A DNA stretch of 32,000 bases. It comes from Fibrobacterota bacterium (GTDB lineage Bacteria > Fibrobacterota > Fibrobacteria > UBA11236). The stretch spans positions 116,120 to 148,119 of the forward strand of contig JAQBPN010000007.1 in assembly GCA_028287505.1 (NCBI GenBank), written 5' to 3'. The notes under the pieces were generated by a model that was not told the DNA's origin, did no database searches, and was given only the letters and a program-made list of their open reading frames with translations. The first letter of the stretch is position 1. Every line of letters starts with the position of its first letter. The position numbers and the translations under genes were made by a program. Positions 4,615-29,694 of the stretch are shown piece after piece.

Positions 4615-4629
4615 CGGGCCCTCGCTGAA

Positions 4630-4970: not shown

Positions 4971-4979
4971 TCCCCCGGG

Positions 4980-6065: not shown

Positions 6066-6090
6066 GGTAGAATTTACGGAGACGCGGCGA

Positions 6091-8484
6091 TCAGAAGGCT
6101 TCGGGCTTGCCTGAGGCCAGGAAGCGGGAAATCCCGGACAGGTATTCCTTGGAAGTGCTGTAGCGGGTGAAACCCCACTTGCGGTTCCCGGTTTCGATCA
6201 CGGGCAGGTTCAGGGTATCGCCGGGATGGACTTCGTTCAGGGCCTTGCCGGGATTGTGCTTTTGCAGCAGCCAGAACGGGATTTCCCGCTCCAGCGCCCA
6301 GTTCCACAGGTTCATGCCTTTTTCCACCCGCAGGGGTTCGGTGACGGAGACATAGTAGTTGCTGTAGAAATCCTCTTCGATGGCGCGGTAATATTCCTCC
6401 CGCCGTTTCACGAATTCCCCGGCCTTGTCCTCCGCCAGGGGGATGCGGATTTTCCGCCCCATGCGGAAGTCCCGCGGGTTGCGGATTTTGTTCAGGTTGC
6501 GCAGCGTCTTCTCCGGCACCCAGGCCCATTCGGAATAGTGGGACAGGGTTTCCTCCGTGCCCGCCTGGATGGACAGGTTGCCGTCCGCGTAGGTGTACTC
6601 CAGATTATAGATGGCCGGATTGAAGCGATCCATGGGATGGGCCAGCTTGTCCATGTCCGAGGCCTGCAACGATAAGGTCGAATCCATCACGCGCTCTTCG
6701 GCGGGAACCGGTGAGGCGGAAATCGCGGGGGTTACCGGAGCGAGGACCGCAGGCGCGGGCGTTGGCGCAATGGCTTTCACGGCCGCGGCCTGGGGAACCG
6801 ATGCCGGCTTGGCGGGCGTCAGCGAAGCCACGGGCCCGATGGCTTGGGGAAGCGAGGGGCTGCCGCTCCCGGAAGCCTTCAGGGCCGCCGCCTTGTCCTT
6901 GGCCGAAGCCGCCGCCACCGGTTGGTTCACCGCGGGAGGAACGGATGGGGGCGCTGGGGCGGGAGCGCCGGCCGCGCTGATCGAGGCTTGGGGTTTCACG
7001 GTCACGGCGGCTTTCTTTTCCCCGATCCGGCGCTTGGGCTTTTCCGGCTTGACCGAAGCCAGAGCGTTCTCATCCGCATTGCCGACCTTGTCCTGGGTCA
7101 TGGAGAGAGGCAAGGTCGCATCGGGCAAAGAATCGGTCACGGCCGCCGCGGCCGCCGAAGTCCCCGCGCCTTCCGCCATCGCCACCGCCACCGGAGCCTC
7201 GACTGTCTTGCCGCCGGAAGCGGCCGCGATGGTCCCCGGTTTTGTCGCGCGGGAAGCGATTTCCACGCCGCCCAGCCTGGCCGCCAGCGAAGACGCATCC
7301 AGCGCCAGGGGCAACCGCAGGGAGAATCCCTTGGGCAACTGCCCGTTGCCGCGGAAGGTCGCGGGCCTCAGCGCCAGATTGTATTCCTCCAGATCCTCGG
7401 GTGACAGGCCGGTTACCGTGCACAGATAGCGCGTGCCCATGGGCTTGGACAGCACCAGGTAGCGGAACTGCAAGGGTTCCATCTTGCGCAGTTCCGGGAA
7501 CAGGGAGTCGGCCTTGAGAGCGATGCTGGACGCGGCCAGGAATTCCGCGTAGAAATTCTTGGAGGCGAAGCCGAAGGAGTTGGAGTAGTAGCTCTTGATG
7601 ATGGTGCCCAGGTCCCGGGTGCCGGCCTGTTTCACCGCATTCGCCACCCCTCCGGGCCCGTGATTGTAGGCCACGATGGCCAGCGGCCAGCTCTTGAGGG
7701 ATGCGAAGTTCCCGGACAGCATGCGGGCGGCCGCCAGCGTCGAAGCCTGGGGATCGCGCCGCTCGTCCACCTGGTACCCCACCTTCACCTTGTACCGGCG
7801 CGCCGAGGACTTCATGAATTGCCACATGCCCGCCGCGCCTACCTTGGAGTAGGCGAAAGGATAGAAGGAGGATTCCACGTGGGGCAGGAACTTCAAGCGC
7901 GAGGGAACGCCCTGCTCGGCGAAGATGGAATCGATGAGGGGAAGATAGCGGTAGGATCGTTCCAGGCCGGCGCGGTACTTTCCCTTGAGACCGCGCTGGA
8001 AGCGCAATCGCTGCGCGGAAAGCATGATGCCGGTGCTGTCCCAGAAAGACGGAAAGGTCGCCTTCAGCTCCCGTTCCTGGGTTGTCCAGGCGGCGCTGTC
8101 CTTGGAGAGCATCACGCGGATCTCTTCCTGCAAGGCGTGCACGTGGCCCTCCACCACCTTGGAAGTCGCGCGGCCCTGGCCGGGAGCCTGCACTTTGCGG
8201 AAGACCAGATCCGGGTAGAAGGGATCGTGGATCAGGCCTTCGTCGTCCCCCACCTCCACATAGATGGCGAACCAGAAGCGGGCCTGGTCCAGGATGAATT
8301 CGTCCGCCGGAAAGGTGGCATCGGTGACGATGGGATAATGCTTTCCTTCGAAATACCCGGATGCCAAGGCCCCGCATGGCGCGGAGGCGAGGATCATTCC
8401 CGTGAGCAAAAGACCCGGGAAAGGAAAGCGGGGCTTCGGAACCGGACCGGAGAACGGGCGTTTTCCTCGAAAGAAATCGGGCAT
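6091..8484 (-). CDS. Large lytic transglycosylase (MltD/SLT-like catalytic domain) with C-terminal LysM-like segments
   Basis: VPSRLKFLPHVESSFYPFAYSKVGAAGMWQFMKSSARRYKVKVGYQVDERRDPQASTLAAARML is the SLT/MltD signature (catalytic E, GMWQFM). The long Ala/Pro linker and C-terminal NKIRNPRDFRMGRKIRIPL / NPGKALNEVHPGDTLNLP segments are LysM-like. Confidence 0.82.
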   Translation of the reverse strand: MPDFFRGKRPFSGPVPKPRFPFPGLLLTGMILASAPCGALASGYFEGKHYPIVTDATFPADEFILDQARFWFAIYVEVGDDEGLIHDPFYPDLVFRKVQAPGQGRATSKVVEGHVHALQEEIRVMLSKDSAAWTTQERELKATFPSFWDSTGIMLSAQRLRFQRGLKGKYRAGLERSYRYLPLIDSIFAEQGVPSRLKFLPHVESSFYPFAYSKVGAAGMWQFMKSSARRYKVKVGYQVDERRDPQASTLAAARMLSGNFASLKSWPLAIVAYNHGPGGVANAVKQAGTRDLGTIIKSYYSNSFGFASKNFYAEFLAASSIALKADSLFPELRKMEPLQFRYLVLSKPMGTRYLCTVTGLSPEDLEEYNLALRPATFRGNGQLPKGFSLRLPLALDASSLAARLGGVEIASRATKPGTIAAASGGKTVEAPVAVAMAEGAGTSAAAAAVTDSLPDATLPLSMTQDKVGNADENALASVKPEKPKRRIGEKKAAVTVKPQASISAAGAPAPAPPSVPPAVNQPVAAASAKDKAAALKASGSGSPSLPQAIGPVASLTPAKPASVPQAAAVKAIAPTPAPAVLAPVTPAISASPVPAEERVMDSTLSLQASDMDKLAHPMDRFNPAIYNLEYTYADGNLSIQAGTEETLSHYSEWAWVPEKTLRNLNKIRNPRDFRMGRKIRIPLAEDKAGEFVKRREEYYRAIEEDFYSNYYVSVTEPLRVEKGMNLWNWALEREIPFWLLQKHNPGKALNEVHPGDTLNLPVIETGNRKWGFTRYSTSKEYLSGISRFLASGKPEAF

Positions 8485-8758
8485 TGTGAGTCCAGGAAAA
8501 AAGGAGTCTTCAAACTAAAAAACCAGGGCGGTCGGCACGAGACTTAAGCCGGCGACTCAGGGTCCATTATATCCGTCTGCGGGACGGATCTGCAAGCCGG
8601 GCAAACCGCTTCAGTCGACGGCTCGTAAGATATGCCGCAATCGGTCCTGGAATCCCCGTTCATGGCCGCTTAGGCAACGGTGGAATCGGACCGGGTGGAA
8701 ATGAAAAGCCCCGCTGGGAGCGGGGCTTGGTTCAGTCATTCGACATCGGGGACGGAAC

Positions 8759-9973
8759 CTAGGGGACTTTGGCCCCAGGCGGCTCTTTTTCATCCTCTTC
8801 ATCGTCGTCATCCTCTTCTTCATCCACTTCCGGTTCGCCTTCGGCCGCGGGTTCACCCTCTTTTTTCATCAGGGTGGGATGGAAATCGATCTTGCGGGCT
8901 TCTTTGGTCTCGCCCAAATGGAGGATTTCCGCGCAATCATCGCAATAGCCGAGTTCCTTGTCGATGGTGAAACGCTCGGAGACGTGATTGATGCCGCATT
9001 TGGTGCAAAGCTGGGGACGCAGCATGTTGCGCTTGAAGATGTGCTGATGCTCCAGCTCGCGTTCGATGCGCTCGACCAGTTCCTCGGGGCTTTCCTCGCC
9101 CCCGCTGCCGCGGCGGCGATTCTGGATATCCGCCGGGATGGGGGAAGCGGTGGTCTTGTCGCCGCGTTTGATGATGCGCTCGGCGCCGGCGGCCACTTCA
9201 TGGAAAAAGGATTTGTTGATTTTCTTGACCACGACCTTCGCGTCGGCGGGAAGGTTCTTGAGCTGCTGCTTGGCAACGGCGTCCTTGACGGCGGAAAGGG
9301 CCTTGGTGGGCGGAACCTTGTCCTTGGCGGCGGCGCGCGCAGCGGTGGCGGCAAGGCTGCGCTGGGCTTTTTCCATCGGGCCTTTGGCCGGAGCCAGCTT
9401 GGGCACCTTGGGTACCTTCGGGATTTTCGGCGCGGCAGGGGGCTTGGGCGGCTTTACCGCCTTGGGTGCGGCCGGCAATTTGGCCGGAGCCGCGGCTTTG
9501 GCGGGAGGCGCAACCTTGGCGGGCTTTGCGATCACCGCGCCGGCCTTGGTCTCATCCTTTTTCCCCTTTACGGGAATGGCAGCCACGGCCTTCTTAGGGG
9601 CCTCGGCTTTTTTCGCCGCCTCGGGCTTTTTCTTGGTGGGAGCGGCAACGGCCTTGGTGGCATTGGCTCCCTTGGGAGCCGGCATGGGCTTGACCGCGGC
9701 CTTCTTGGCCGGAGCGACCGCCTTAGCGGGAACGGGTTTTTTGGCGACGGACTTTGCGGTTGCCGCGGCCGGTTTGGCGGAGGCGGTAACCTTGGAAGGC
9801 TTTTGCTTGGAGTTGTTTTTGGCGGATCCCTGCTTCACATCTTCCTTTTTGGCTGCTCTCGGCGCGCTACCCTTGGCATTGTTAGTAGACCATTTCTGGC
9901 TCACGGCCCCTAGGGCCGTTCGCGGCTTTAGCGCTGCTTTGCCTGATTTGGCATTTTTTTTCGCCGATGCCAT
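8759..9973 (-). CDS. Lys/Ala/Pro-rich histone H1-like protein with C-terminal DksA/TraR-type four-Cys zinc motif and acidic tail
   Basis: N-terminal ~230 aa low-complexity K/A/P repeats; C-terminal LCTKCGINHVSERFTIDKELGYCDDCAEIL; then EVDEEEDDDDEEDEKE. Confidence 0.8.
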   Translation of the reverse strand: MASAKKNAKSGKAALKPRTALGAVSQKWSTNNAKGSAPRAAKKEDVKQGSAKNNSKQKPSKVTASAKPAAATAKSVAKKPVPAKAVAPAKKAAVKPMPAPKGANATKAVAAPTKKKPEAAKKAEAPKKAVAAIPVKGKKDETKAGAVIAKPAKVAPPAKAAAPAKLPAAPKAVKPPKPPAAPKIPKVPKVPKLAPAKGPMEKAQRSLAATAARAAAKDKVPPTKALSAVKDAVAKQQLKNLPADAKVVVKKINKSFFHEVAAGAERIIKRGDKTTASPIPADIQNRRRGSGGEESPEELVERIERELEHQHIFKRNMLRPQLCTKCGINHVSERFTIDKELGYCDDCAEILHLGETKEARKIDFHPTLMKKEGEPAAEGEPEVDEEEDDDDEEDEKEPPGAKVP

Positions 9974-10091
9974 AAGTTGGATCCACTCCCTTTAAAAGAG
10001 GCGCAAAAGTGCGAAGGCTCCTGAAAAGGTAGTATGCAAACACGCTATTTTGGGCGTTTGCGCAATCGACGGTCCCCGATGGGGGAAAAAC

Positions 10092-10634
10092 CTACTTCAC
10101 CTCGGTGATTTTCAATTCCAATATGGGATCGCCCCGTTCAAGTCGGGTCAGGACGTCAAAGCCGGAAATGAGCTTGCCGAAAATCGTGTGCCGCCCATCC
10201 AGGTGGGGCTGGGGCATGTGGCAGATGAAAAACTGGGATCCGGCCGTATTGGGGCCGGCATTGGCCATGGACAAGGATCCTGCCTCATGCTTCAAATCGT
10301 TGTGCTCATCGTCGATTTTCCACCCCGGACCGCCGGTTCCATCCCCATTGGGGTCCCCGCCCTGGGCCATGAAGCCCTCGATGATGCGATGGAAGGCCAG
10401 GCCATTGTAAAAACCGGAATCGACCAGATGCAGGAAATTGGACACGGTGTTGGGAGCCTGTTTGAAGTAAAGCTCCAGCTTCATCGTGCCCTCGTGGGTC
10501 TTGATTTCCGCGAAGATTTGCTTGGTTTTGCTGTAATCCCGGTTGTATTGACGCCCGGTCTGGGCGGAAACCAGGGAAAGGGAGAAAAGCATAACGGGCA
10601 AAAAGAAGCGCGTCGAGAAGTACTTTGCAATCAT
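10092..10634 (-). CDS. Peptidyl-prolyl cis-trans isomerase, cyclophilin type, with signal peptide
   Basis: SNFLHLVDSGFYNGLAFHRIIEGFMAQGGDPNGDGTGGPGW...SMANAGPNTAGSQFFICHMPQPHLDGRHTIFGKL. Confidence 0.93.
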   Translation of the reverse strand: MIAKYFSTRFFLPVMLFSLSLVSAQTGRQYNRDYSKTKQIFAEIKTHEGTMKLELYFKQAPNTVSNFLHLVDSGFYNGLAFHRIIEGFMAQGGDPNGDGTGGPGWKIDDEHNDLKHEAGSLSMANAGPNTAGSQFFICHMPQPHLDGRHTIFGKLISGFDVLTRLERGDPILELKITEVK

Positions 10635-10791
10635 AGGTTTGACCCGAATTGAAAGGGAAGATTTCTAACCGAGCATGAATTTAGTAAATATTCCCGCGGA
10701 AAACCCGTCAAGTGGGGGTCAAACCGGGCTTCCGGAACTGACGCCCGTCCCCGATTTTGGTACCTTTGTCCCCTCTTTCTGACGGAAACCC

Positions 10792-12597
<1,806 letters not shown>

Positions 12598-12600
12598 TTA

Positions 12601-12718
12601 GGCTCGTCGCTCAGGAGTTGCAGCGAACAGCCCATCAGGGGCTGTGAGCCACCCGGTCGACATCTACAACTGCAAACTCCACGCTCCTCACTTTTATAGG
12701 CTTGCCGGCTCGTCGCTC
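12601..12718. repeat. Short palindromic element bracketed by 12-nt direct repeats
   Basis: GGCTCGTCGCTC at 12601-12612 and 12707-12718. Internal near-inverted arms GGAGTTGCAG (12614-12623) and CTGCAAACTCC (12670-12680). Inner hairpin CAGCCC (12628-12633)/GGGCTG (12639-12644). Confidence 0.5.
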
Positions 12719-12789
12719 CGGCTCGCCTGTTTTTGCTACCTATTCGGGTAGCAACCGCTTCCGCATTCTGTTAGCACATATCCGGCCAT

Positions 12790-14733
12790 ATGCCGGCCGC
12801 AAGGCCGGAGGGAGGATCCCTGAATCGCACCGCTTTGATCGGATTCGCACTGCTCTCATGGGCATGGGACGCCCATTCCCAAGGCGCGTGGATCCGGCAG
12901 GATCCGCGGCCTGCGAATATGCAACTCAACGCCGCCGATTTCGTCGACTCCCGCCACGGCTGGGCTGTGGGGACGGGCGGAACCGTTCTCAGGACCACGG
13001 ACGGCGGGGATACCTGGACCCCGCAATGGTCCGACACGTCCTTCAGCGCCGTTTCCGTGGACTTCCTCAATCCGGACACGGGATGGATTTGCGGATTCCC
13101 GGCAACGATCCTCAAAACCACGGACGGAGGCGGTACGTGGACCGTGAAAAAATTGGGCGGAACCGGACCTCTGTACGCCATCCATTTTCACGATGCCCGG
13201 CTTGGCTGGACGACCGGTGAGGGCGGCTATATTTTCCGGACCCGGGACGGCGGGTCCACCTGGGACACCTGTCCCCGGGCGACGGAATGGAGCCTGAAAT
13301 CCATTCAATTCATAAACGCATCCAAAGGCTGGGCCATGGGGGAATACAGCTCCATCGTCACGACGGAGGATGGAGGAACGAGTTGGAAATCCTTGGGAAA
13401 GGTGGGAGAGTTCATCGCTGCGTCCCAGTTTCTGGATGCGGATACGGGATTCGCGGCCGGAACCACGGGAAATGTTTTCAAAACCGCAGACGGCGGCGTA
13501 TCGTGGATGCAATTGAATCCCCTGACCATAAAAGACCTTTTCGCGATCCATTTCGCGGATTCCCGGACCGGATGGGTGGCCGGACGGGCGGGCTGGATCA
13601 GCAAGACCGTGGATGGGGGGGCTACGTGGACGGCGCAGGATTCCCGCGTGCCCGTCACCCTCTACGCCATCCCGTTCGTGGGCAAAGACACCGGCTGGTT
13701 TGCGGGAGATAACGGCACTCTCGGCAAGACCACGGATGGGGGCGCCACGTGGACCTTTCCGCCCAACGCCGTCAAGAGGTCCCTGCGATCCGTCCACTTT
13801 ATCGATGCCGAAACGGGATGGGCCGCGGGAGACGCCGGCACCATCCTCGGCACCACGGACGGCGGACTGCACTGGTTGGATCGCAATCCGCCCACCCGGG
13901 AGGACTTCGGGGCCATCCATTTTCCGGACGCCAAGCATGGGTGGGCAGTGACGTTTTCGGGGTCGGTTTTCAAATCGGAGGACGGCGGGATCGGATGGAC
14001 GCTGCAGAAGAAATTGGGGAACAATCCCTTGGCCAGCGTGTGGTTCATCGATGATCGCAACGGATGGCTCGGCCGTGAACACGACTTCGTACGCAAAACC
14101 GAGGACGGAGGGGAAACTTGGATACCCCAGGATAGCGCCACCTTCGGCGCCGCAAGGATACGCTTCGCCGATGCCCTTCGGGGTTGGGCCTCGGACGGCA
14201 GGCGGCTGCTCCGGACCCGGGACGGCGGCAAAAACTGGGACAGCATCAGGACCACCGAGGCCCTCCGGGGATTCGCCATGGCGTCCGCTGATTCCCTGGT
14301 CGGCATCGGAAGCGGCTTTTTGGTCCATCGCACCTTCGACGGCGGAACCCATTGGTCGGCGGCGGACGTCCGTACGGAAGCGATGGGCTCCAATGCAGTG
14401 GCTTTCGCGAAATCGGGAGAGGTCTGGGGCGTGGGCATAGGCGGGGAAATCACCGGGTCCAAGGACGGCGGAGCGACCTGGACACGGGTGGGCGGCAAAG
14501 CCGACAAGGCCGATCTGCATGATGTATTCCTGTTGGACGGCGGCGGCGGATGGGCGGTGGGAGACAGTGGGGTCATCCTTAAATACGATGCCAACGCTCC
14601 CGCTTCCATAGCGACCGGAAAAAGCCCCCATGTGGATTACCGTAAGCGAAATAGATCGGCGACGACCATGCCCGGCCGCAAAATACCCTGGCTCTCCGGT
14701 TGGTTCGATTTCCTGGGACGCCGCAACCTTTAG
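12790..14733 (+). CDS. YCF48/BNR-like beta-propeller protein, probably secreted (start may be CTG at 12820)
   Basis: More than ten tandem repeats of the form GWxxGxxGxIxxTxDGGxTW; signal-like segment LNRTALIGFALLSWAWDAHSQG. Confidence 0.85.
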   Translation: MPAARPEGGSLNRTALIGFALLSWAWDAHSQGAWIRQDPRPANMQLNAADFVDSRHGWAVGTGGTVLRTTDGGDTWTPQWSDTSFSAVSVDFLNPDTGWICGFPATILKTTDGGGTWTVKKLGGTGPLYAIHFHDARLGWTTGEGGYIFRTRDGGSTWDTCPRATEWSLKSIQFINASKGWAMGEYSSIVTTEDGGTSWKSLGKVGEFIAASQFLDADTGFAAGTTGNVFKTADGGVSWMQLNPLTIKDLFAIHFADSRTGWVAGRAGWISKTVDGGATWTAQDSRVPVTLYAIPFVGKDTGWFAGDNGTLGKTTDGGATWTFPPNAVKRSLRSVHFIDAETGWAAGDAGTILGTTDGGLHWLDRNPPTREDFGAIHFPDAKHGWAVTFSGSVFKSEDGGIGWTLQKKLGNNPLASVWFIDDRNGWLGREHDFVRKTEDGGETWIPQDSATFGAARIRFADALRGWASDGRRLLRTRDGGKNWDSIRTTEALRGFAMASADSLVGIGSGFLVHRTFDGGTHWSAADVRTEAMGSNAVAFAKSGEVWGVGIGGEITGSKDGGATWTRVGGKADKADLHDVFLLDGGGGWAVGDSGVILKYDANAPASIATGKSPHVDYRKRNRSATTMPGRKIPWLSGWFDFLGRRNL

Positions 14734-15125
14734 GCGAGGATGCTCACCGCATGCGCGAAAAAACCATGCCGCCAAGACCGGTCCGCTCGCCATTTACAAA
14801 GCTGCTTTTAGCCCTCTTGAGAAAGATCCCCAAAGGCAAAGTGGCCTCCTATGGACAGATCGCGGCCCTGGCCGATCATCCGCGCGCCGCGCGCCAGGTG
14901 GTGCGCCTGTTGCATACTCTTTCCGAACGCGAGAACCTGCCCTGGCACCGGGTGGTCAACCGTAACGGGCATATTTCCCTTCCCATGGAAGGCGCAGGCG
15001 GCCTGCAACGTCGCCTATTGATCAAAGAAGGCGTAAAAGTGAACGCGCAAGGAGCGATGGATTTGGAACGGTTCGGATGGAAGCCGGAAATGAAGCCGCG
15101 CAAATCCGCGCTTCCTCGCGGGTAA
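14700..15125 (+). CDS. Alkyltransferase-like (ATL) protein of the MGMT family (likely start 14751)
   Basis: IPKGKVASYGQIAALADHPRAARQVVRLLHTLSERENLPWHRVVNRNGHISLP: MGMT DNA-binding domain with active-site Cys replaced by Trp (PWHR). Confidence 0.88.
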   Translation: MVRFPGTPQPLGEDAHRMREKTMPPRPVRSPFTKLLLALLRKIPKGKVASYGQIAALADHPRAARQVVRLLHTLSERENLPWHRVVNRNGHISLPMEGAGGLQRRLLIKEGVKVNAQGAMDLERFGWKPEMKPRKSALPRG

Positions 15126-15131
15126 AACCCA

Positions 15132-15806
15132 TTAATGGATTTTCAAAACGATGCGGCGGTTCTTGGCCTGATTGGATGAAATCGGCTTCCCGTCGCCGTC
15201 CACGTTGGGCACCTTGGGCTTGGTGTCCGCGTAGCCCGCCGCCTTGAGGCGCTCGGACGGAATGCCTTTTCCGATCAGGTACTTGACGATGTTGGTGGCG
15301 CGCGAAACCGAGAGTTCCCAGTTGGACGGGAACTGGAGGGTATTGATGGGAATGTTGTCCGTGTGGCCCTCGATGTCCACCGCGAACTTGTAATACTCGA
15401 TGCGTTGGATGGCATCGGCCACCTTGTCCATGTTCGCCCGCGCCGAGGGTCCGATATCCGCCTTGCCCGGATCGTAGATGGCCGAACTCGAGAATTCCAC
15501 GATGATGCCGTCGCGCCCCAGATCGATGTTCACTTCGCCGCGCTTCCGCTGATCCGCCAGGAGCGAATCCAGGTCGTGCTTGATTTCGCCCAGGGGCGTC
15601 TTCACGTCCTTGTCCTTGCCGATATCGCTGCGCAGGCCCTTCTTCATCTGTTCGAAGAGCACCGGATCCACATGGGAGACGGAAAGCATGGCCAGGAAAA
15701 AGGCCATCAGGAGCGTCACCATGTCGGCGTAGCTCATGAGCCAATCCTCTTCGACCCCTTCGTGTTCCGGGACGCGGTGGCGGTTGTGGTGTTTTCTGAT
15801 GCCCAT
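15132..15806 (-). CDS. motB: MotB-like stator protein
   Basis: TM with ion-binding Asp (WLMSYADMVTLLMAFFLAML) and OmpA-like peptidoglycan-binding domain (DIEGHTDNIPI...NWELSVSRATNIVKYL...NRRIVLKI). Confidence 0.92.
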   Translation of the reverse strand: MGIRKHHNRHRVPEHEGVEEDWLMSYADMVTLLMAFFLAMLSVSHVDPVLFEQMKKGLRSDIGKDKDVKTPLGEIKHDLDSLLADQRKRGEVNIDLGRDGIIVEFSSSAIYDPGKADIGPSARANMDKVADAIQRIEYYKFAVDIEGHTDNIPINTLQFPSNWELSVSRATNIVKYLIGKGIPSERLKAAGYADTKPKVPNVDGDGKPISSNQAKNRRIVLKIH

Positions 15807-15815
15807 GGAGAGCGC

Positions 15816-16625
15816 CTACTTGCCCTTCTTGGCGGCCCCGGGCTTGTCGCCGAACATCGAATACTGATCCTTGCGGTCCAGGTAGGAATTCATCTTGTCC
15901 TGGATGTACATGGCCGGCTTCTTTTCCATGATCAGGACCAGGGCCTCCAGGATCAGGTAATGGCGGAAGCGCTCGATGCTCAGGGTCTGCTTCACCTTGG
16001 TGGAGGAAGGCATGAATACGAAGCGGGCGAAGAGCAGGCCGTATAACGTGGCGGTCAGGGCCAGGGAAAGTCCCGGTCCCAGCTTGGACGGGTCTTCCAG
16101 CTTGCCCAGCATGACGATCAGTCCCAGCAGGGTGCCCACCAGGCCGAAAGCCGGAGTCATGGATCCCATGGAAGTCAGGATGGTGGATCCCTGCAGATGG
16201 CGGAAGTAATGTTCTTCGATGTTGGTGGTGCCGAACTCCCGGATGTCGTCCGGCTTGTAGCCCGTGCTGGCCAGGGTGAAGATGTACCTGGTGAATTCGT
16301 CCTTGCTGGACTTGGCGATGGAGTCGTAGCCATTCTGGCCCTCGGCCTGCACCTTCTTGGACCATTCGCCCGCGAGCCTCACATCCTGGATCAGGCTCTT
16401 GGAGGAGATATCCTGCTTGACGAATATCTTCAGGGTGGCCCTGAAGGCGTTCCACACGTATTGGAAGCGGAACCCGATGAAGGTAACCGTAACGGTACCC
16501 CCGAAGACGATGGCGAAGCTGCCCAGGCTCAGGAAAACCTGCCAGTCCTTGGTTTCATGGAGGATTCCCAGGGCTATGACCAGGAACCCGAAAACGACGC
16601 CGCATACCGTGGATAGGGAGATCAT
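15816..16625 (-). CDS. motA: MotA-like stator protein
   Basis: 269 aa, four-TM topology, TPAFGLVGTLLGLIVMLGKLEDPSKLGPGLSLALTATLYGLLFARFVFMP signature; 9 nt upstream of motB. Confidence 0.92.
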   Translation of the reverse strand: MISLSTVCGVVFGFLVIALGILHETKDWQVFLSLGSFAIVFGGTVTVTFIGFRFQYVWNAFRATLKIFVKQDISSKSLIQDVRLAGEWSKKVQAEGQNGYDSIAKSSKDEFTRYIFTLASTGYKPDDIREFGTTNIEEHYFRHLQGSTILTSMGSMTPAFGLVGTLLGLIVMLGKLEDPSKLGPGLSLALTATLYGLLFARFVFMPSSTKVKQTLSIERFRHYLILEALVLIMEKKPAMYIQDKMNSYLDRKDQYSMFGDKPGAAKKGK

Positions 16626-17914
16626 GGGGCCTTTTCCTCTTTGGCTGCCTTCGCATCCTTGGGCGCGCCGGACATCGCGTCTTTTGACGCGCCGGGGAGC
16701 GGGATCTTGGCCTTCTTCTCTTCCGGCTTGCTTTTGTCGGCGGCCTTGGCGGGAGAAGCGGGAGGGACGGGAGCAGCGGCCGGGGCGGGTGCCGGAACCG
16801 GCGTTGTGACCGGAGCCGGGGCGGGCGTCTCCGCGGCGTCCGCTTCGGGGGCCGCTTCGTTTTCGGCGGCGGGAGCGGCGGCGGGTTCAGGCTCCGGAGC
16901 CGGGGGCGCGGCGGGGCGCGCCTGGGTGGGCTTGGCCAGATGGGTCGCGCGCTGGACCGGAGCGGCGGCCTCCGGGATCGGTGCCGCGACCGGTGCGCCG
17001 GCGGAGGAGGCCGGAGCCGCGTTCAACTGTCCGTTGTATTCCTCCGGGAAGGGAACCTGGTCCGCCTCGGGCAATGCGGCCGCGGAAGGGCGCGGAGCGG
17101 GGCGGGGCATGATGGGGCGGGGATTGGGCGATCCCCGGCCGCCCGGAGTGCGGGTCTTCTCGAGCATGTTGACCACGGCGGGCATGTCGGGATTGAGGCG
17201 CAGGGCTTCCATCCATTCGCGCCGCGCCATGCCGCCCTGTCCCATCATGTAGTGGATGCTGCCCGCCAAGGCGTGGCCTTCCGCGGTGGAACGCGCATCC
17301 AGGGAGGATCGGACGGCCTGCATGGCCTCCGGGAAGCGCTTCTGGTAGAAAAGCTCCTGGGCCTTGCGGATGCCCGTCAGTACCTTGGAGGTTACGTCCT
17401 CGTAGTCTCCCTGTTCCTCTTCGGCGGGCGGCGTTTCGGGTTTGGCGCGGGCGCGCGGATCCTGCGGTTGCTGGTGTTGCGCCGGTGGCTGACGCAAGGC
17501 ATTCCGCTGCGGGTCCGGATCCGGTTGGGCCTGCCCGTCCTGATCCTCCTGGGAAGGCGGCCTGGGTTCCGGATTGGCCGCTTTCGCCCGCTGGGCGGCA
17601 TGATGCTCTTCCGGTTCGCGGGCGGCGTGCTTGGCTTCTTCCGAGGGAGGCGGATTCGGCTTTCCGGTCATTTCCAGGTACAGATCCGTGGACCCCAGAT
17701 CGATGGTCACGTTGGCATCGGTGCTTTTGTTCGCGTAATGGAAACTGATGCTGCCTTGGCCGTTTTCGCCCGGTTCGGTTTCCGGCCCGGCCTGGGACTG
17801 GGAGGGAGCGGAACTCCTGACGTCGGGATCGGGGGCGCTTCCACCGCAACCAAGCAGGAGCATTGCGGCCATGACGGCCGAAGCCGCCGCGCGCGCGGAT
17901 GCCTCGGCCGTCAT
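16622..17914 (-). CDS. TPR-containing Pro/Ala-rich lipoprotein (track ORF extends to 17971; ATG at 17914 preferred)
   Basis: MTAEASARAAASAVMAAMLLLGC|GGSAPDPD lipobox; TPR-like AQELFYQKRFPEAMQAVRSSLDARSTAEGHALAGSIHYMMGQGGMARREWMEALRLNPD; stop overlaps the motA start (ATGA). Confidence 0.78.
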   Translation of the reverse strand: MTAEASARAAASAVMAAMLLLGCGGSAPDPDVRSSAPSQSQAGPETEPGENGQGSISFHYANKSTDANVTIDLGSTDLYLEMTGKPNPPPSEEAKHAAREPEEHHAAQRAKAANPEPRPPSQEDQDGQAQPDPDPQRNALRQPPAQHQQPQDPRARAKPETPPAEEEQGDYEDVTSKVLTGIRKAQELFYQKRFPEAMQAVRSSLDARSTAEGHALAGSIHYMMGQGGMARREWMEALRLNPDMPAVVNMLEKTRTPGGRGSPNPRPIMPRPAPRPSAAALPEADQVPFPEEYNGQLNAAPASSAGAPVAAPIPEAAAPVQRATHLAKPTQARPAAPPAPEPEPAAAPAAENEAAPEADAAETPAPAPVTTPVPAPAPAAAPVPPASPAKAADKSKPEEKKAKIPLPGASKDAMSGAPKDAKAAKEEKAP

Positions 17915-17933
17915 GGCCGCCCGCGACCGCGGC

Positions 17934-19088
17934 TTAGAACGTGTAATGCAGATAGGTGAGTTCATAGGCAACGGGTTCCAGGGTCAGGAAACGATTTTCT
18001 TCATCGGCGCCGAGACCTTTCAGTTTGTTGTTGAGGGGCATGAAAAGAATGCCTCCGCCCAAGGTGAAATGGCGGCTGACGCGCGACTTGTAACCCACCG
18101 TGAGCGTGCTGAGATGCCCGCGATTGTTGAAAGGGACGAACTCCTTGTAACCCACGTATGTTCCGAGCCAGTAGCCCAGATCGGGATTGGATTTCCGGAA
18201 GAAAATCCCCAGCATCTCGATGCCGAAATTCACCATCTGGATGTTGAAGTTGACCGCCAGGCTGTCCGGCCCGCCCGTGCCGTTGGCGAAACCGTACCCG
18301 AGGGAAACGGAGAAGAGCAGGAACTTGTCCGGGGTGACCGCTTCGCTGACCGTGCCTTCGATTCCGTACATGGTGAGGGCCAGGTTGGAGAGGGTGTCCA
18401 GTTTGGGGCGGCCGAGCGAATCGGAGGCGACCGCGCTGGGGACGATGCCTTCCTGGATGGGGAAGCGGGTCACGTTGGCGGAGGCGCTCCAATCCAGGTT
18501 CCAGATGTCCGGCTTCTTCTCGTTGGGTCCGGCCACGAAGCTGTTCGACCAGACGATTTCGCCCGTGCGGTGGCGGAACACCTTCAGGTTCAGGATCACG
18601 TCGTTGTCCGCGCTTTTGGAACAGGAGCCTTCGATATAGCCGTCCACGCGGAGCTTGTCCCCCAGCTTCCAGAGATCTTCCATGGACGGCAGGGTGTTGG
18701 AGAACTTGAAGGTGCTGTCGGTGGCCACCACGCGGAAAGTCCGGAGTTCCGGGGACGTGACCACGGTCTTGCGGCCTTCCTTGCGGAACACCTCTTCGAT
18801 CTGGGCCTGGATGTAGCGCGAAATGCCGGGGCTGAATTCCTTGGGATCCACTTTGATCTGGGACAGGGCGATGCGATCGATGTTGGGAGGGATGTCGCCC
18901 ATGGTCTTGGACAGGCGCCCCATGATCTCCGCTATCTGGCGGAGGCCGGTGGAACTGGGCGCGAAGGGATCCGGCGAAGACGCGGCCGCGGAAGCGGACG
19001 GCGCGCACATGGCCAGGCATAAGGCCAGGCACATGCCCATGATCGGGGCCGGGAGGAAACCGGCCCTGTTCGCGGAGCCGGAAATCAT
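17934..19088 (-). CDS. Secreted protein with FlgO/CsgG-like N-terminal domain and C-terminal putative outer-membrane beta-barrel
   Basis: Signal peptide; PNIDRIALSQIKVDPKEFSPGISRYIQAQIEEVFRKEGRKTVVTSPELR...LWKLGDKLRVDGYIEGSCSKSADNDVILNLKVFRHRTGEIVWSNSF; then alternating amphipathic strands ending in LTYLHYTF (C-terminal aromatic). Confidence 0.65.
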   Translation of the reverse strand: MISGSANRAGFLPAPIMGMCLALCLAMCAPSASAAASSPDPFAPSSTGLRQIAEIMGRLSKTMGDIPPNIDRIALSQIKVDPKEFSPGISRYIQAQIEEVFRKEGRKTVVTSPELRTFRVVATDSTFKFSNTLPSMEDLWKLGDKLRVDGYIEGSCSKSADNDVILNLKVFRHRTGEIVWSNSFVAGPNEKKPDIWNLDWSASANVTRFPIQEGIVPSAVASDSLGRPKLDTLSNLALTMYGIEGTVSEAVTPDKFLLFSVSLGYGFANGTGGPDSLAVNFNIQMVNFGIEMLGIFFRKSNPDLGYWLGTYVGYKEFVPFNNRGHLSTLTVGYKSRVSRHFTLGGGILFMPLNNKLKGLGADEENRFLTLEPVAYELTYLHYTF

Positions 19089-20941
19089 ACCGGCCTCCCC
19101 GAATGCTTGATTTCGTCGCGGATCCTGTGGAGGAGGCGGCGTTGCGCGGCCTCGGACTCCTTGGGCGTGGCGTCCTTGGAGCCTTCCATGCCCCCGGACA
19201 CCATCATCTGCATGCGTTCCGGCAGCAGGGAAAGGACTTTGGCGCGGATGGGCGCTTCCACGTGGAGGAGGGCCAGGATGAGGGTCTCCTGATCCAGACC
19301 CTGGAGGACGGTGCCCAGGAACTTGTCGGGCAGTCCGACCACTTCCGGCAGGGTAACGTACCGGTTACGTAATTTCTCGCCCAGGCCCAGATCCATTTCG
19401 GAGATGGAGTGGATGTACTGGAACTGCATGTTGAGGGGCAGGCTGTCGATCAATTCCAGGATGCTGTCCACGCCGTCGGCGGCCACGTAGCGCATGTTGC
19501 CCACGTCCAGGGCCTTGAGGGACAGCCGGTCCGCGATTTCCTTGTACACGGTGACCGGGATATGATCGATGTTCCCCATGGCGATCAGGAGCTTGGCCCG
19601 GTTGTCGGGATCCGTTTTCTGCAGGATGCCGCCGGCGACTTCGCCCGGCAATTGCGCCAGCACCAGGCCCACTATCCCCAGGGATTCGTCGCGCAGGATG
19701 TGCATGATCTGCTGTTCGTTCATCTGCAGCAGGAACCCGAACATGTCCTTGTATTGGTCTTCGTCCATGTGGCCGTTGGCCAGGTTCTGGTACTCGCGCT
19801 TGAATTCCTTGTACACGGTGAGCATGTCTTCGGAGGTGGGCGTCTCCCCCGCGTTCATGTGCATTTCCAGCTTTTGCGCGATATCGCGCCCGAGTTCGGG
19901 GGCGATCACGCCCATCAGGCGCGCGTCCAGGCTGGCGATCATGGCGGCGGAGTCGCGCATGCCCTTGTCGGGGTCGCGCTGGATCCAGCTCTTGATGATC
20001 TGGCCGCAATGTTTGGGGCTGCCCACGAAGCAGTTCAGCAGAAAGGGGCGGAAGGCGCCGAGTTCGGAAGGCTGGCCCTTGCCCGCGTCCGCCTTGCGGG
20101 CCGCGGACTCCCTGGGAGGCTCGGGCGCGGGAACGGGGGCGGGCGGATACTTGTCGTTCCGTTCGCCGCGGGACGAACCCATGATGGCCCGCGAGACCAT
20201 CCACACGCAGGCGAGGATAAGCAGGCAGATGATGACCAGGGGAATCAGGGAGGGAAGATGGTCGGTATAGTTGCCGAAGGGATTGGCGGCGGCCTTGTCC
20301 CTGGCATCCTCTTTCTTGGAGGCCGTGTCGTTCTTGGCCGGGGCCTGGGCGGCCGGCATGGGAGGAGGATCCACCGGCTTGCGGTAGTTGGTCAGGGAAC
20401 GGTTGTCGCGCGGGAACACGCCTTCGTGGACGGAGACTCGGTCACCCCGCGGCTCGTCCAGGCGCGTGGCCATGGTCAGCAGATTGCGGATGAACTCCAC
20501 GTCCTTCTGGGAGTATCCGGTATCCACCAGGATGTCCAGGGTAACCGCCTGGATACCCCCGGGATTGCGCGCCGCATCGTCGGCGGAGGGAACCGGAGCG
20601 GAGGGCTGTACGGTTTCCGGCAGGAAAGGAAGTCCCGGCAATTGCTGGGGCATTTCGCCCGAAACGGCGGCGGGGTCGTCCCCGCCCAGTTCCATTTCCG
20701 GCGGCGGTTCCATTTCGACTTTGGCTTTGACGAGATAGGTCGATTCTTCGTAATAGCGCGCGAGCGTGCGCGAGGCGATGTTCTCGTAGTATTGGGCCAG
20801 CTTCGCGGCCTGGTCCAGGGGCGGCCTGGCGCCGGCCATGGAGGGCTGGGCGGTCGCGTGGGCCGCCATCCCCAGAACCAGGGACAGACTTGAGATTTTA
20901 CAGGCGATGGACATGGCAATGCTGATTATACAACCCGGCAT
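19085..20941 (-). CDS. FliF-FliG-like fusion: signal peptide, periplasmic RBM3-like domain, one TM helix, FliG-like cytoplasmic middle/C-terminal domains
   Basis: Residues 131-180 GIQAVTLDILVDTGYSQKDVEFIRNLLTMATRLDEPRGDRVSVHEGVFPRDN match the FliF RBM3 pattern. TM at ~229-251 (LPSLIPLVIICLLILACVWMVSRAI). Residues 523-618 KLRNRYVTLPEVVGLPDKFLGTVLQGLDQETLILALLHVEAPIRAKVLSLLPERMQMMVSGG...ESEAAQRRLLHRIRDEIKHSGRP match the FliG C-terminal domain pattern. Start may be 20914. Confidence 0.8.
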   Translation of the reverse strand: MPGCIISIAMSIACKISSLSLVLGMAAHATAQPSMAGARPPLDQAAKLAQYYENIASRTLARYYEESTYLVKAKVEMEPPPEMELGGDDPAAVSGEMPQQLPGLPFLPETVQPSAPVPSADDAARNPGGIQAVTLDILVDTGYSQKDVEFIRNLLTMATRLDEPRGDRVSVHEGVFPRDNRSLTNYRKPVDPPPMPAAQAPAKNDTASKKEDARDKAAANPFGNYTDHLPSLIPLVIICLLILACVWMVSRAIMGSSRGERNDKYPPAPVPAPEPPRESAARKADAGKGQPSELGAFRPFLLNCFVGSPKHCGQIIKSWIQRDPDKGMRDSAAMIASLDARLMGVIAPELGRDIAQKLEMHMNAGETPTSEDMLTVYKEFKREYQNLANGHMDEDQYKDMFGFLLQMNEQQIMHILRDESLGIVGLVLAQLPGEVAGGILQKTDPDNRAKLLIAMGNIDHIPVTVYKEIADRLSLKALDVGNMRYVAADGVDSILELIDSLPLNMQFQYIHSISEMDLGLGEKLRNRYVTLPEVVGLPDKFLGTVLQGLDQETLILALLHVEAPIRAKVLSLLPERMQMMVSGGMEGSKDATPKESEAAQRRLLHRIRDEIKHSGRPV

Positions 20942-21085
20942 TTGGGGAGACTACGGATTTTCAGTTTGCCCCGGAAAGGACAAAGCTTGATAAAAGCTTA
21001 AAGTTCTACGGATGATTTACCGATAACTTCCGGATGAACCGGCGGCCATGCGAAGGCACGGCCGGGCCGGGAGAAGGGATTGGAC

Positions 21086-22789
21086 ATGTCGATAGGGTTT
21101 CGCCTCGCGATATTCGGCGCCCTCGCCTTGTGCGCATGCGATGACGGCACCGTCCATGTCGTCCGTTTCCCTTCCGGAAAAATCCGCGAAATGTGGACGG
21201 AGAAAGGCCCCAATCCCAAGGCCACCGTGCGCGAGGGTCTCTTCCAATCCTTTTTCCCGGACGGAAGCCGTTCCAGCGCCGTGGAATACCGCGGCGGCGG
21301 CAAGAACGGAAGCGCCAGCATGTGGGATGCCGGGGGCCGGCTCCGATTCAAGGGCGAATACAAAGACGACTTTCTGGTGCGGGAGATCCGTTACGACACG
21401 TCGGGAAAGGTGTCCGCGGATCGCCGTTTCTCCGTCAAAACCGATCGGGTCAAAGCCATCGGCTCTTCCGGGGACTCCCTGACGGTCCCGGAAACCTGCG
21501 CCTGGTCGGAGGCCGCCGGCCGGCCGCCCCTCAAGGACGGCCTTTGCACCATGAAGTATGCGGACGGGAAGGTCATGGCCACGCGCTATTACCAATCCGG
21601 AAGGCTGAACGGCCCCGTAAAGGCCTGGTACCGGGACGGCACGCCCTGGATGGACGGTTCCTACGCGAATGCCATCCCCGCGGGCAGATGGCGCACCTGG
21701 ACCCCCGGCGGAAACCCGCTCTGGTCGGCCGCGTACGACAAAGGAGAACGGGAAGGGGCCTGGGAGGAATGGTTCCCGGACGGCGGTCCGAAATCGAAAT
21801 CAGCCTACCGGAAAGGCAAAGCGGAAGGGGGGTATCAGGAATGGTACCCCAGCGGCAAACCCCGCCTGCGCGGGCAATTCCTGGCGGGGCGCCGGGAAGG
21901 CCAGGAAGCGGCATGGTATCCCGACGGCGCCCGCCTGTATTCCGCCCGTTACGCGGGCGGCCAACTGGAAGGGGATTTCTACCAATGGCACCCGGGCGGC
22001 AAACTGCGCCTGCATTGCCGGTTCGCCAAGGGAAAGAAAGAAGGGGGCAGCCGGGTATGGTATCCCACGGGCGTATTGCAGGAGCAGGCCTATTACAAGG
22101 CGGGGCGCCTGAACGGCTCCTATCGCACCTGGTCCGCGGAGGGCGCGCCCATGGCCATGAAGGAATTCCGCGACGGAGCCGTGGCATTCGACTCCAAGGC
22201 GAAGGAGCTCCTGGATCTCCTGGGGGCGGATCAACTGCGCGTGCCCGTGGGCATGATGGGATTCTACTGGGGCATGGGCGCCAAGGAATGCCGCGCCAAC
22301 CTGGGCCTGTACCAGGCCTCGGACGTGCATGCGAACGACGAGGGGATCACCGCGAAGATGATCGCCTTCCCGGATCGCCGCCCCACCCAGGCGCAAATCC
22401 GGCTCTCGTTCAACGGCCAAGGCGAACTATGGGGCATCAAATTGGATTTGCTCCAGCAATCGTCCGGGGACTTCTTCCCTTTGTGCGAGAACCTGGAAAT
22501 CGAAATCGGCGCGGAATTGGGAACGGCGGGACTGCGCAAGGCGGAAGGCGCATCGGATTACAGCATGACGCGGAAAAGGGATTGGGGGAAGTTCACGGTG
22601 ACCACGGGAACGGCCGGGGGCATCCAACAGGACCTGCCGGTCCTGAGCGCGGAAGGATTCAGCCCCGCCGCCAAGGGGTGGTTCCGCTTTTCCCTGGCCA
22701 ACCACCTCTATCGCGAATACGTGAATCCCGCCAACGCATCCATCACGCCTCCGCGTTGGCAGGAAGAGACCTTCCTCGCCGGACGCTGA
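21086..22789 (+). CDS. MORN_2/YwqK-type repeat lipoprotein (track start 21080 is TTG; ATG at 21086 preferred)
   Basis: LAIFGALALCAC lipobox; repeated YxxGxxxGxWxxWxPxGxxxxxxxY units, e.g. YYQSGRLNGPVKAWYRDGTPWMDGSY, YDKGEREGAWEEWFPDGGPKSKSAY. Confidence 0.8.
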   Translation: MSIGFRLAIFGALALCACDDGTVHVVRFPSGKIREMWTEKGPNPKATVREGLFQSFFPDGSRSSAVEYRGGGKNGSASMWDAGGRLRFKGEYKDDFLVREIRYDTSGKVSADRRFSVKTDRVKAIGSSGDSLTVPETCAWSEAAGRPPLKDGLCTMKYADGKVMATRYYQSGRLNGPVKAWYRDGTPWMDGSYANAIPAGRWRTWTPGGNPLWSAAYDKGEREGAWEEWFPDGGPKSKSAYRKGKAEGGYQEWYPSGKPRLRGQFLAGRREGQEAAWYPDGARLYSARYAGGQLEGDFYQWHPGGKLRLHCRFAKGKKEGGSRVWYPTGVLQEQAYYKAGRLNGSYRTWSAEGAPMAMKEFRDGAVAFDSKAKELLDLLGADQLRVPVGMMGFYWGMGAKECRANLGLYQASDVHANDEGITAKMIAFPDRRPTQAQIRLSFNGQGELWGIKLDLLQQSSGDFFPLCENLEIEIGAELGTAGLRKAEGASDYSMTRKRDWGKFTVTTGTAGGIQQDLPVLSAEGFSPAAKGWFRFSLANHLYREYVNPANASITPPRWQEETFLAGR

Positions 22790-26711: not shown

Positions 26712-27812
26712 CTAGAGGTCCACGGCCTTGGCCAAGTCCTTATAGATGCGGCCCACGCGCTCCACTTGGCCTTTGGCCGGAAAGCGTTCGTAGAAACCTT
26801 CCGCTTTGAAGGCCTTTTTCAATTCGATCCAGGGTTGCAGCCGTTCGGCCCAGCGCTTGACCCGGCCCACGGAGGGTTCGCCGTCCTTTTCGGAAAGATC
26901 CGCGCAGACGCGGATGAGCGCTTTGAGGGTGACCGGCCGGGTGACCATGTATCCCGAGTTGCCCCAGATTTCGCCCCACACCTGGGCGGAAGCCTTCAGG
27001 AAGTCCCGGAGTTGCTCGTAATAGCGTTCCGCCTGATGGGTCGGGGAAAGATCTTCCTTCGGATCCCATTCGGATTTGACCCAGCGGTTGATTTCATTGA
27101 AAAGCTCGGCCTGGAGAATCCATTTCTCCTGCTTGCTTTTGCCGCCCAGGCGGTTGATACGGTATTGGAGCGGGCTATCGTCCCGTCCATACAGATGCTC
27201 CACCACGCGGGCTGCGCAACGCTTGTCGGGCGAGGCGAAGGACACCCGCTCGTACAAGTCCACCAAGTGGCTTTTGTTGATGCGGGTGGGGGTGGAGTTG
27301 ATGATGACGAACATTTCCGTGGCGAAATCCTCGCTGCGGCCGTCGAAAATGATGCAAGGCACGTTGATGGATGCGGCCTCGTCCGGACGCTCCCGGAAGA
27401 AGAAATGCAGGGCGGCCAGGCGGTGCTGTCCGTCGATAATCAGGTATTTCCCGTCCGGATCCGACAGATGGCCCACGCCTTCATTGTCCCCGATGCCCCG
27501 GAACCGCAGCTTCTCCGCGGTGAACAGCAATACCGTGCCCGGAATGGGGGGCTGGGTGCTGGCGGTCTCGTAGAAATTGCGGATGGAGCGGATTTTGTCC
27601 CGCGCCATGGTGCGCTGGAAGGCCTTGTCCGATTTCTCGATACGGCCGATGAATTTGGCGATTTCGTCCTCGGCCGGAGCGGGTTCCGCGGCGATGGGCG
27701 TACCCTCGTCGTAGAAACGGCTGCTGAAACGCACCTTCTCCAAGAGCGCTTTCGCCGGATAGGCGGCGAAGTAGAAGATTGCGTCTTTTTGTCGGACCTG
27801 AGTAGCCAGCAT
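26712..27812 (-). CDS. DGQHR domain protein (DndB-like family)
   Basis: KYLIIDGQHRLAALHFFFRERPDEAASINVPCIIFDGRSEDFATEMFVIINSTPTRINKSHLVDLY: DGQHR motif plus FxxINxxxxxIxKSxxxDL. Confidence 0.85.
   Translation of the reverse strand: MLATQVRQKDAIFYFAAYPAKALLEKVRFSSRFYDEGTPIAAEPAPAEDEIAKFIGRIEKSDKAFQRTMARDKIRSIRNFYETASTQPPIPGTVLLFTAEKLRFRGIGDNEGVGHLSDPDGKYLIIDGQHRLAALHFFFRERPDEAASINVPCIIFDGRSEDFATEMFVIINSTPTRINKSHLVDLYERVSFASPDKRCAARVVEHLYGRDDSPLQYRINRLGGKSKQEKWILQAELFNEINRWVKSEWDPKEDLSPTHQAERYYEQLRDFLKASAQVWGEIWGNSGYMVTRPVTLKALIRVCADLSEKDGEPSVGRVKRWAERLQPWIELKKAFKAEGFYERFPAKGQVERVGRIYKDLAKAVDL

Positions 27813-28446: not shown

Positions 28447-29690
<1,244 letters not shown>

Positions 29691-29694
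<4 letters not shown>

Follow-up and report, generated by a model that had tools for sequence, protein, structure and literature searches.

A conserved five-gene cassette joining a FliF–FliG fusion to a MotAB stator, probably an ion-driven envelope machine

We analysed a 32,000-nucleotide stretch of contig JAQBPN010000007.1 from a Fibrobacterota bacterium (hereafter the window, to whose first letter all positions refer unless a locus in another genome is named). Five adjacent minus-strand genes (15132-20941) encode a FliF-FliG fusion (G1), an outer-membrane barrel protein (G2), a TPR lipoprotein (G3), MotA and MotB. This cassette is a conserved, selected and functionally linked set, comprising a membrane-anchored FliG with an RBM3 domain (the third ring-building motif of FliF), a flagellar-type stator, a TPR lipoprotein and, usually, an outer-membrane barrel. 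Its lack of other flagellar parts and its conservation in distant bacteria, one of them non-motile, make it probable that the cassette is an ion-driven envelope machine not described before. We lean towards reading the locus as a self-contained rotor-stator module that derives from, or is sister to, the flagellar motor core and works without a flagellum.

A coupled operon of flagellar and envelope parts

All five open reading frames (ORFs) were confirmed. The first-pass annotation of this DNA had proposed one tightly coupled operon, and direct reading of the junctions bears out the stop/start overlaps and short gaps on which that proposal stood. The G1 stop and the G2 start share ATGA (19085-19088), as do the G3 stop and the motA start (16622-16625), and the gap from the motA stop to the motB start is 9 nucleotides (GCGCTCTCC). 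A divergent MORN-repeat gene (21080) borders the operon on one side and a convergent methyltransferase-like gene, ending at 15125, on the other. A promoter and terminator scan gave nothing beyond shuffled expectation, and a terminator-like hairpin past motB (15111-15098) was not significant. Domain and fold matches agree with the parts list given in the same annotation (RBM3-FliG fusion, MotA, MotB, TPR lipoprotein and outer-membrane barrel). Its statement that the window holds no flagellin, rod, hook, export or FliM/FliN gene also holds, with no match to any of these families among the 25 window ORFs scanned.

G1 (19085-20941, minus strand) is a membrane protein of 618 residues, or 609 from the annotated ATG at 20914, and is 100% identical to the NCBI entry 'FliG-like protein [Fibrobacteres bacterium]'. 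The earlier assignment of FliF RBM3 and FliG to this protein is matched both by sequence (Pfam) and by fold (Foldseek). Pfam detects FliG_C (5e-14), FliG_M (7e-13), FliG_N (9.5e-5) and, at residues 125-173, YscJ_FliF_C (0.0021), the last with 19 bits and so under the Pfam cutoff of 23.8. Across 42 family members, FliG_C and FliG_M are each found in 42, FliG_N in 31 and YscJ_FliF_C in 12 (best E 6.8e-6). The NCBIfam fliG equivalog TIGR00207 scores 74.8 bits on G1 and misses its cutoff of 226.7.

The AF2 (AlphaFold2) model of G1, with a mean predicted local distance difference test score (pLDDT) of 75.6, runs from a signal-like helix through a periplasmic domain, a transmembrane helix and a disordered linker to about 320 residues of helical repeats. 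The signal peptide or signal anchor (MSIACKISSLSLVLGMAAHATAQ; 20846-20914) is visible in the sequence and corresponds to AF2 helix 14-28. The periplasmic ring-building-motif (RBM) domain (residues 42-173; 20423-20818), supported by the model, Foldseek and Pfam, has the order alpha (42-61), beta (69-77), an unmodelled segment (78-128, a 52-residue loop), beta (130-139), alpha (145-158) and beta (168-173). Foldseek against the PDB aligns this part with the RBM3/S-ring of FliF (7d84, 8zdt, 6scn and 6sd1; E 5e-3 to 4e-2, target TM-score ~0.5), and the unmodelled loop lies at what we take to be the position of the FliF RBM3 beta-collar. The loop carries an LPGLP motif (residues 101-105; 20627-20641), identified by alignment, that is a candidate partner-binding site; in the 42-sequence alignment L101, G103 and P105 do not vary, and P102 and L104 hardly do. 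Beyond the transmembrane helix (residues 229-255; 20177-20257), which is both a hydrophobic stretch (LPSLIPLVIICLLILACVWMVSRAIMG) and an AF2 helix, the cytoplasmic part contains the FliG N, M and C domains (residues 292-614; 19100-20068). Here Foldseek aligns 312-325 columns to full-length FliG (8wiw, 8umx and 3hjl; E 1e-8), and phmmer against FliG structures gives 6e-12. RBM1 and RBM2 are not present in the model, in which the periplasmic part of about 190 residues has one RBM and no other folded domain.

MotA (15816-16625, minus strand; 269 residues) is a flagellar-type stator A subunit. It matches Pfam MotA_ExbB at 3e-22 and the NCBIfam MotP, PomA and MotA models at 1e-40 to 1e-35 (MotP 3e-40), compared with about 1e-4 for TolQ/ExbB (TolQ 8.6e-5), and it aligns end to end with the MotA/PomA structures 6ysf, 8ucs and 8bri, over an architecture of four transmembrane helices with a torque domain in the cytoplasm. 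MotB (15132-15806, minus strand; 224 residues) is the B subunit, with a transmembrane/plug region and an OmpA-like peptidoglycan-binding domain. Its MotB_plug (9e-17) and OmpA (2e-16) matches are both over the Pfam cutoffs, and MotD/MotB models match it at up to 5e-49. None of the NCBIfam equivalog cutoffs for MotA, PomA, MotP, MotB and MotD was reached (best MotP, 137.9 of 394, and MotD, 167.2 of 283).

The residues on which ion flow and torque depend in the flagellar motor are conserved throughout the family. MotB D28, equivalent to E. coli D32 (15723-15725), is present in 37 of 37 sequences, as are MotA P158 and P206 (E. coli P173 and P222), and G1 R576, equivalent to E. coli FliG R281 (19214-19216), is present in 43 of 43. 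At the position of the FliM-binding EHPQ motif of FliG, the window G1 has ESLG (19676-19687), with I at the R160 position. The family as a whole reads E-S-x-G/E here, only the Glu being conserved, and R160 is replaced by a hydrophobic residue, or by His/Tyr in three loci. The MFXF hinge of FliG aligns to YVTL in G1 and is not conserved. Since the FliM-binding motif is absent, and so are the domains in which the export gate is housed, G1 cannot be an ordinary MS-ring/C-ring pair. The lack of RBM1, RBM2 and EHPQR likewise rules out that it is simply an ordinary FliF or FliG.

At the charged rotor-stator interface the two phyla differ. The equivalents of FliG D288/D289 are G-G (G583/G584) in the window clade and S-E in Balneolaceae; for MotA R90 and E98, the window clade has Q93 and D101, and Balneolaceae have K/R and mostly S/T/N. 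In Balneolaceae, K/R at the MotA R90 position goes together with Glu at the position of FliG D289. In Fibrobacteria the corresponding two residues are Gln and Gly, but D/E at the MotA E98 position is kept, together with the FliG R281 equivalent.

G2 (17934-19088, minus strand) is a secreted outer-membrane protein of 384 residues with the C-terminus ...HYTF, 100% identical to the NCBI entry 'hypothetical protein JWO30_540 [Fibrobacteres bacterium]'. Its AF2 model (mean pLDDT 78.9) has a signal peptide, an alpha/beta domain and a C-terminal beta-barrel. According to the model and Foldseek, the periplasmic domain (residues 49-186; 18531-18944) resembles the LpoB C-domain (4q6z, target TM-score 0.70) as well as the TolB N-domain and GNA1162, and the barrel (17937-18497) resembles OmpA, OmpW and OprG (target TM-score 0.45-0.54). 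A weak Foldseek match to a Vibrio LPHT-ring chain (8z5n, E 6e-4) was also seen. The protein had been described as an outer-membrane barrel with a FlgO/CsgG-like domain. The barrel stands; the FlgO/CsgG label is imprecise and gained no support, as G2 has no match among Pfam, NCBIfam or PDB sequences, FlgO and CsgG families included, and the fold match is to LpoB-C, TolB-N and GNA1162.

G3 (16622-17914, minus strand) is a lipoprotein of 430 residues, most likely starting at ATG 17914 rather than at TTG 17971. The ATG lies 19 nucleotides past the G2 stop, is the start chosen by an independent gene call on a metagenome contig, and yields a lipoprotein signal with the lipobox LLLGC (17846-17860), whose Cys hardly varies within the family. 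After a short conserved N-terminal block (17663-17752) come about two TPR repeats (17180-17383) recognised with the family profile, which matches consensus TPR proteins at 1e-9 to 1e-7; the single sequence matches Pfam TPR_2 with E 0.001. In the window clade G3 has long low-complexity spacers and a tail rich in Ala, Pro and Glu. These inserts and the tail, which is about 170 residues long (88 Ala, 68 Pro), make up the extra length of a protein twice as long as its Balneolaceae homologue (430 versus ~210 residues), and may serve as a spacer that spans the periplasm.

Conservation, selection and carriers of the cassette

A genome scan with one peptide motif over species-representative genomes, in which the list of taxa is a lower bound, found 40 loci in uncultured Fibrobacteria and in Balneolaceae. 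Isolates among the carriers are Gracilimonas tropica DSM 19535 (locus L028) and Balneola sp. EhC07. The order G1-G2-G3-MotA-MotB, the conservation of which in relatives had been called for as a check, is kept in each fetched locus of sufficient length from Fibrobacteria and Balneolaceae, at about 30% identity. As the same order recurs in every such locus, the arrangement is not due to chance. In loci with annotated flanking genes, the flanks differ and consist of unrelated housekeeping genes, and no flagellar gene was found beside the cassette in any of the Pfam-annotated loci (L046-L051 included).

We also searched a G1 profile against 1.84 billion representatives at the 50% identity level. 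At least 236 representatives belong to the G1 family at E ≤ 1e-30, and the best 150 are nearly all 560-780 residues long; one short 'FliG' in this search (P0293, 331 residues) is a fragment on a 1.3-kb contig. A G1 relative was found in Thalassolituus sp. One further taxon (L048) carries the same five genes. In a gammaproteobacterial metagenome-assembled genome (L050) the set is reordered as TPR/Sel1, MotA, MotB, G2 homologue, TPR and G1 (3191-16819), and in another genome (L051) it consists of TPR, G1, MotA and MotB (7191-14573). Profile searches confirmed the homology of the G2 and G3 counterparts in the sampled distant loci.

Several of these distant loci have features of their own. Immediately next to the L050 cassette lies a cluster for exopolysaccharide export (BBP2 porin, Wza-like Poly_export, Wzz/GNVR kinase and Wzy_C). 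The L051 set is followed by MoxR-type AAA, DUF58, DUF4381 and VWA genes, resembling a Bat/aerotolerance operon, and by a pilin-like gene. In L047, a 422-residue protein (6725-7993) directly upstream of a full-length 777-residue fusion corresponds to the periplasmic and transmembrane part of G1 only, with no FliG; it is a candidate second ring component.

Purifying selection acts on each of the five genes. The ratio of nonsynonymous to synonymous substitution rates (dN/dS, Nei-Gojobori) could be computed for 33 of 35 gene-pair comparisons, covering the five genes and both phyla, with dS saturated in the other two. Of the 33 values, 32 fell within 0.01-0.29, and the other, from a MotA comparison, was 0.39.

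The cassette is not tied to flagella, since it is carried by non-motile G. tropica, reported to be without flagellar assembly genes, and also occurs in Fibrobacterota, which are often flagellated outside Fibrobacteraceae, with a G1 relative in the flagellated genus Thalassolituus. G. tropica has been described as non-motile (PMC4642740), and the report that it has no flagellar assembly genes comes from a study that proposes gradual loss of flagellar genes in Balneolaceae (PMC9909488). Reports on Balneola conflict, with flagella described in B. vulgaris (PMC5167729) versus no flagellar genes in the genus (PMC9909488). As a carrier of the cassette is non-motile, motility is weakened as its general output. 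The gliding and adhesin movement that the first-pass annotation offered as possible functions gained no support from the analysis.

Proposed mechanism and alternative explanations

The domain content of the five proteins suggests how such a machine might work. G1 would sit in the inner membrane, its RBM3-type ring-building domain facing the periplasm and its complete FliG the cytoplasm. On the model of FliF/FliG, we infer that it forms a ring in which each subunit has its own FliG; the flagellar MS-ring is built of about 33-34 FliF subunits. Units of the MotA5B2 type would pass H+ or Na+ by way of the invariant MotB Asp and the MotA Pro channel, would be anchored to peptidoglycan by the OmpA-like domain of MotB, and would push on the torque helix at the FliG C-terminus, where Arg576 is invariant. 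As EHPQR and the MFXF hinge are absent, there would be no C-ring switch, and the machine would be expected to run in one direction. Work might then be relayed by the transmembrane helix of G1 to its ring in the periplasm and to the LPGLP loop, which would face the TPR lipoprotein G3 and the LpoB/TolB-N-like domain of G2. In this way ion-motive force could be coupled to a process associated with peptidoglycan or the outer membrane. In its most specific form, which we put forward tentatively, this would be a minimal free-standing rotary motor, ion-driven, in which MotAB turns a homo-oligomeric RBM3/FliG ring one way only. Such a motor would have no export gate, axial structure or switch and would perform a non-swimming envelope task through the TPR lipoprotein and the barrel.

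A number of observations weigh against a self-contained rotor-stator module. Ring formation, contact between the stator and FliG, rotation, the G1-G2-G3 contacts and the output are inferences, and the putative output-carrying periplasmic loop of G1, including the LPGLP region, is unmodelled, with pLDDT below 50. The window clade lacks one of the two canonical charge pairs between rotor and stator (FliG G583/G584 and MotA Q93). The coupled charge changes between MotA and FliG do follow the pattern that would be expected of co-evolving partners, but they amount to about one phylogenetic event. Among the distant relatives, the G1 homologue of L049 (8001-10226, 741 residues), which is followed by a 166-residue protein, MotA and MotB, has an N-terminal LysM domain, and the TPR/Sel1 neighbour in L050 has a weak SPOR match; given LysM and SPOR in these variants, a rotor bound to peptidoglycan could not turn against a stator that is itself bound to peptidoglycan. 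The G1 relatives in L046 and L047 have TPR neighbours but no adjacent motAB. Lastly, flagella are common in Fibrobacterota outside Fibrobacteraceae (PMC4704652).

The main rival, which we regard as possible though rather unlikely, is an envelope energiser or tether that does not rotate and resembles Tol-Pal. FliG would be a cytoplasmic platform on which MotAB docks and is activated, and ion flow would drive conformational work, relayed to the TPR lipoprotein and the LpoB/TolB-N-like barrel for envelope integrity, division or peptidoglycan remodelling. Tol-Pal operons carry a TPR protein, CpoB, and in the cassette family a TPR protein always adjoins G1, even where motAB is not a neighbour. The LpoB-C/TolB-N fold of the G2 N-domain, and the LysM and SPOR matches that would tie the 'rotor' side to peptidoglycan, point the same way, as does the non-motile habit of G. 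tropica (PMC4642740). However, MotA and MotB are clearly of the flagellar rather than the TolQR/ExbBD type (MotP/PomA 1e-40 versus TolQ 1e-4), and three FliG domains with the torque-helix Arg are conserved, which goes beyond the needs of a mere docking site. The ring-building RBM3 domain is retained as well, and MotA5B2 units are themselves rotary (PMC12704724).

It is improbable that the cassette is an accessory or alternative part of a conventional flagellum encoded elsewhere, for example as an additional rotor/stator set or as a scaffold like the H/T rings of Vibrio or the PflA/PflB/FlgP structures of Campylobacter. Epsilonproteobacterial and Vibrio motors do have TPR scaffolds and outer-membrane-linked discs around their stators, the G1 family reaches Thalassolituus, and G2 has its weak match to the Vibrio LPHT-ring chain; flagellar genes are also ancestral and common in Fibrobacterota (PMC4704652). 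Yet G1, without RBM1, RBM2 or a FliM-binding motif, cannot template an export gate or C-ring, no flagellar gene lies beside the cassette in the window or in the Pfam-annotated loci, and Balneolaceae, among them G. tropica, reported without flagellar assembly genes (PMC9909488), keep an intact cassette on which purifying selection acts. The flagellar gene loss proposed for that family (PMC9909488) could suggest instead a decaying, functionless remnant of a lost flagellar system, but we give this almost no credence, as the five genes are intact, their translational coupling is retained and the special fusion architecture is common to several phyla. The dN/dS values and the invariant catalytic residues effectively refute a decaying relic. 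An anti-phage defence system of the Zorya kind, built on a MotAB-type motor, is equally hard to credit. MotB does match ZorB models (1.6e-16), as any MotB does, and a DndB-like gene lies 6 kb away, but MotA, at 269 residues, matches flagellar MotA along its whole length and has no long ZorA tail, and the neighbours of the cassette are variable housekeeping genes. We therefore rejected Zorya and other defence functions: PADLOC returned generic ZorB/MotB matches only, with no ZorA, ZorC or ZorD, and MotA was unmatched by any PADLOC model.

Relation to known systems and neighbouring genes

We interpret the cassette as a flagellar-type rotor-stator pair re-used outside the flagellum. With the flagellar motor core it shares an RBM3-type domain, FliG N, M and C domains with the torque-helix Arg, and a MotA/MotB pair of the flagellar type, including the ion path of Asp and Pro, the plug and the OmpA-like anchor. 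It differs in that FliF and FliG form one polypeptide, from which RBM1, RBM2, the long beta-collar and the EHPQR and MFXF motifs are missing, in that the operon encodes an outer-membrane barrel and a TPR lipoprotein instead of export gate, rod, hook, filament and FliM/FliN, and in its occurrence in a non-motile bacterium.

Among published proteins, the closest is a FliF-FliG-like fusion of chlamydiae, which has RBM2, a second RBM-like domain and a cytosolic region homologous to the M region of FliG. Its proposed role is alongside the type III secretion system, with no MotAB partner described (PMC4768692). Both are natural fusions of a shortened FliF (few RBMs and a transmembrane helix) with a FliG-like cytoplasmic part, and both occur in non-flagellated organisms (PMC4768692). 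Set against that published description, the cassette differs by an RBM3-like RBM, a complete FliG and MotAB in the operon. Engineered FliF-FliG fusions of Salmonella and Vibrio are likewise covalent 1:1 polypeptides and assemble into rings (PMC6079021, PMC11481574), so that a covalent 1:1 design is feasible; unlike the cassette, they are laboratory constructs with full-length FliF in a complete flagellum.

Tol-Pal (TolQRA, TolB, Pal and CpoB) resembles the cassette in combining, within one envelope-spanning operon, an ion-driven inner-membrane motor of the 5:2 type, a TolB-N/LpoB-like domain, an OmpA-like domain and a TPR protein. However, the cassette stator is of the MotAB rather than the TolQR type, there is no TolA and no beta-propeller (G2 being a beta-barrel), and Tol-Pal has no counterpart of the FliG/RBM3 ring protein. 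GldLM of the type IX secretion system (T9SS), AglRQS-Glt, ExbBD-TonB and ZorAB are also ion-driven motors of the MotAB superfamily with a non-flagellar envelope output, but none drives FliG or an RBM ring, and no Pfam or PADLOC match to their specific components was found in the cassette. In Vibrio (FlgT/FlgO/FlgP and MotX/Y) and Campylobacter (PflA/PflB/FlgP), TPR proteins, lipoproteins and TolB-N-like domains surround MotB between the membranes. The cassette shares these three kinds of part with such stator scaffolds, but shows no sequence match to them (Pfam, NCBIfam and PDB) and lacks the P and L rings on which they are built.

To our knowledge, torque generation between FliG and MotAB is known from the flagellum only, and the other motors of the superfamily (Tol, Exb, Gld, Agl and Zor) have quite different driven partners. 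Full-text literature searches found no description of the cassette; a paper on MotAB evolution does not mention it (PMC12505986), and Cavalier-Smith 2006 contained nothing relevant. There is a substantial chance that the cassette represents a new kind of rotary envelope machine. If the reading as a free-standing rotary motor is true, no earlier non-flagellar machine would be known in which FliG is the driven part, and the cassette would be either a living relative of a pre-flagellar rotor-stator stage or an independent re-use, giving an experimental handle on how the motor of the flagellum originated. The cassette would show that a rotor-stator pair can serve a non-flagellar purpose, and it would bear on what a proto-flagellar motor could do prior to a filament. 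Direct tests are within reach, since G. tropica DSM 19535 and Balneola sp. EhC07 are carriers in culture. The cassette may also account for stray 'fliG/motA/motB' annotations in bacteria that are non-motile, where such entries can easily pass for remnants of an incomplete flagellum.

The first-pass annotation had described the neighbouring genes as unrelated, and the scans of window ORFs agree. On either side, the cassette is flanked by a BNR/Ycf48-like repeat protein of 647 residues (12790-14733, plus strand) and by the MORN_2-repeat protein of 569 residues (21080-22789, plus strand), homologues of which are not kept beside the cassette in the other loci. Further scanned ORFs encode a P-type ATPase, an acyltransferase, a lytic transglycosylase, LepA, a DndB-like protein, TrpA and prephenate dehydrogenase. 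The DndB-like protein (366 residues; 26712-27812, minus strand), about 6 kb from the cassette, matches DndB (1e-11) and GmrSD_N (5e-5), and from these matches may be a DNA-modification-associated or defence gene. In the 549-residue TrpA ORF (28848-30497, plus strand), the TrpA domain is restricted to residues 289-522, and the long N-terminal part is probably an over-extension across an upstream gene in high-GC sequence.

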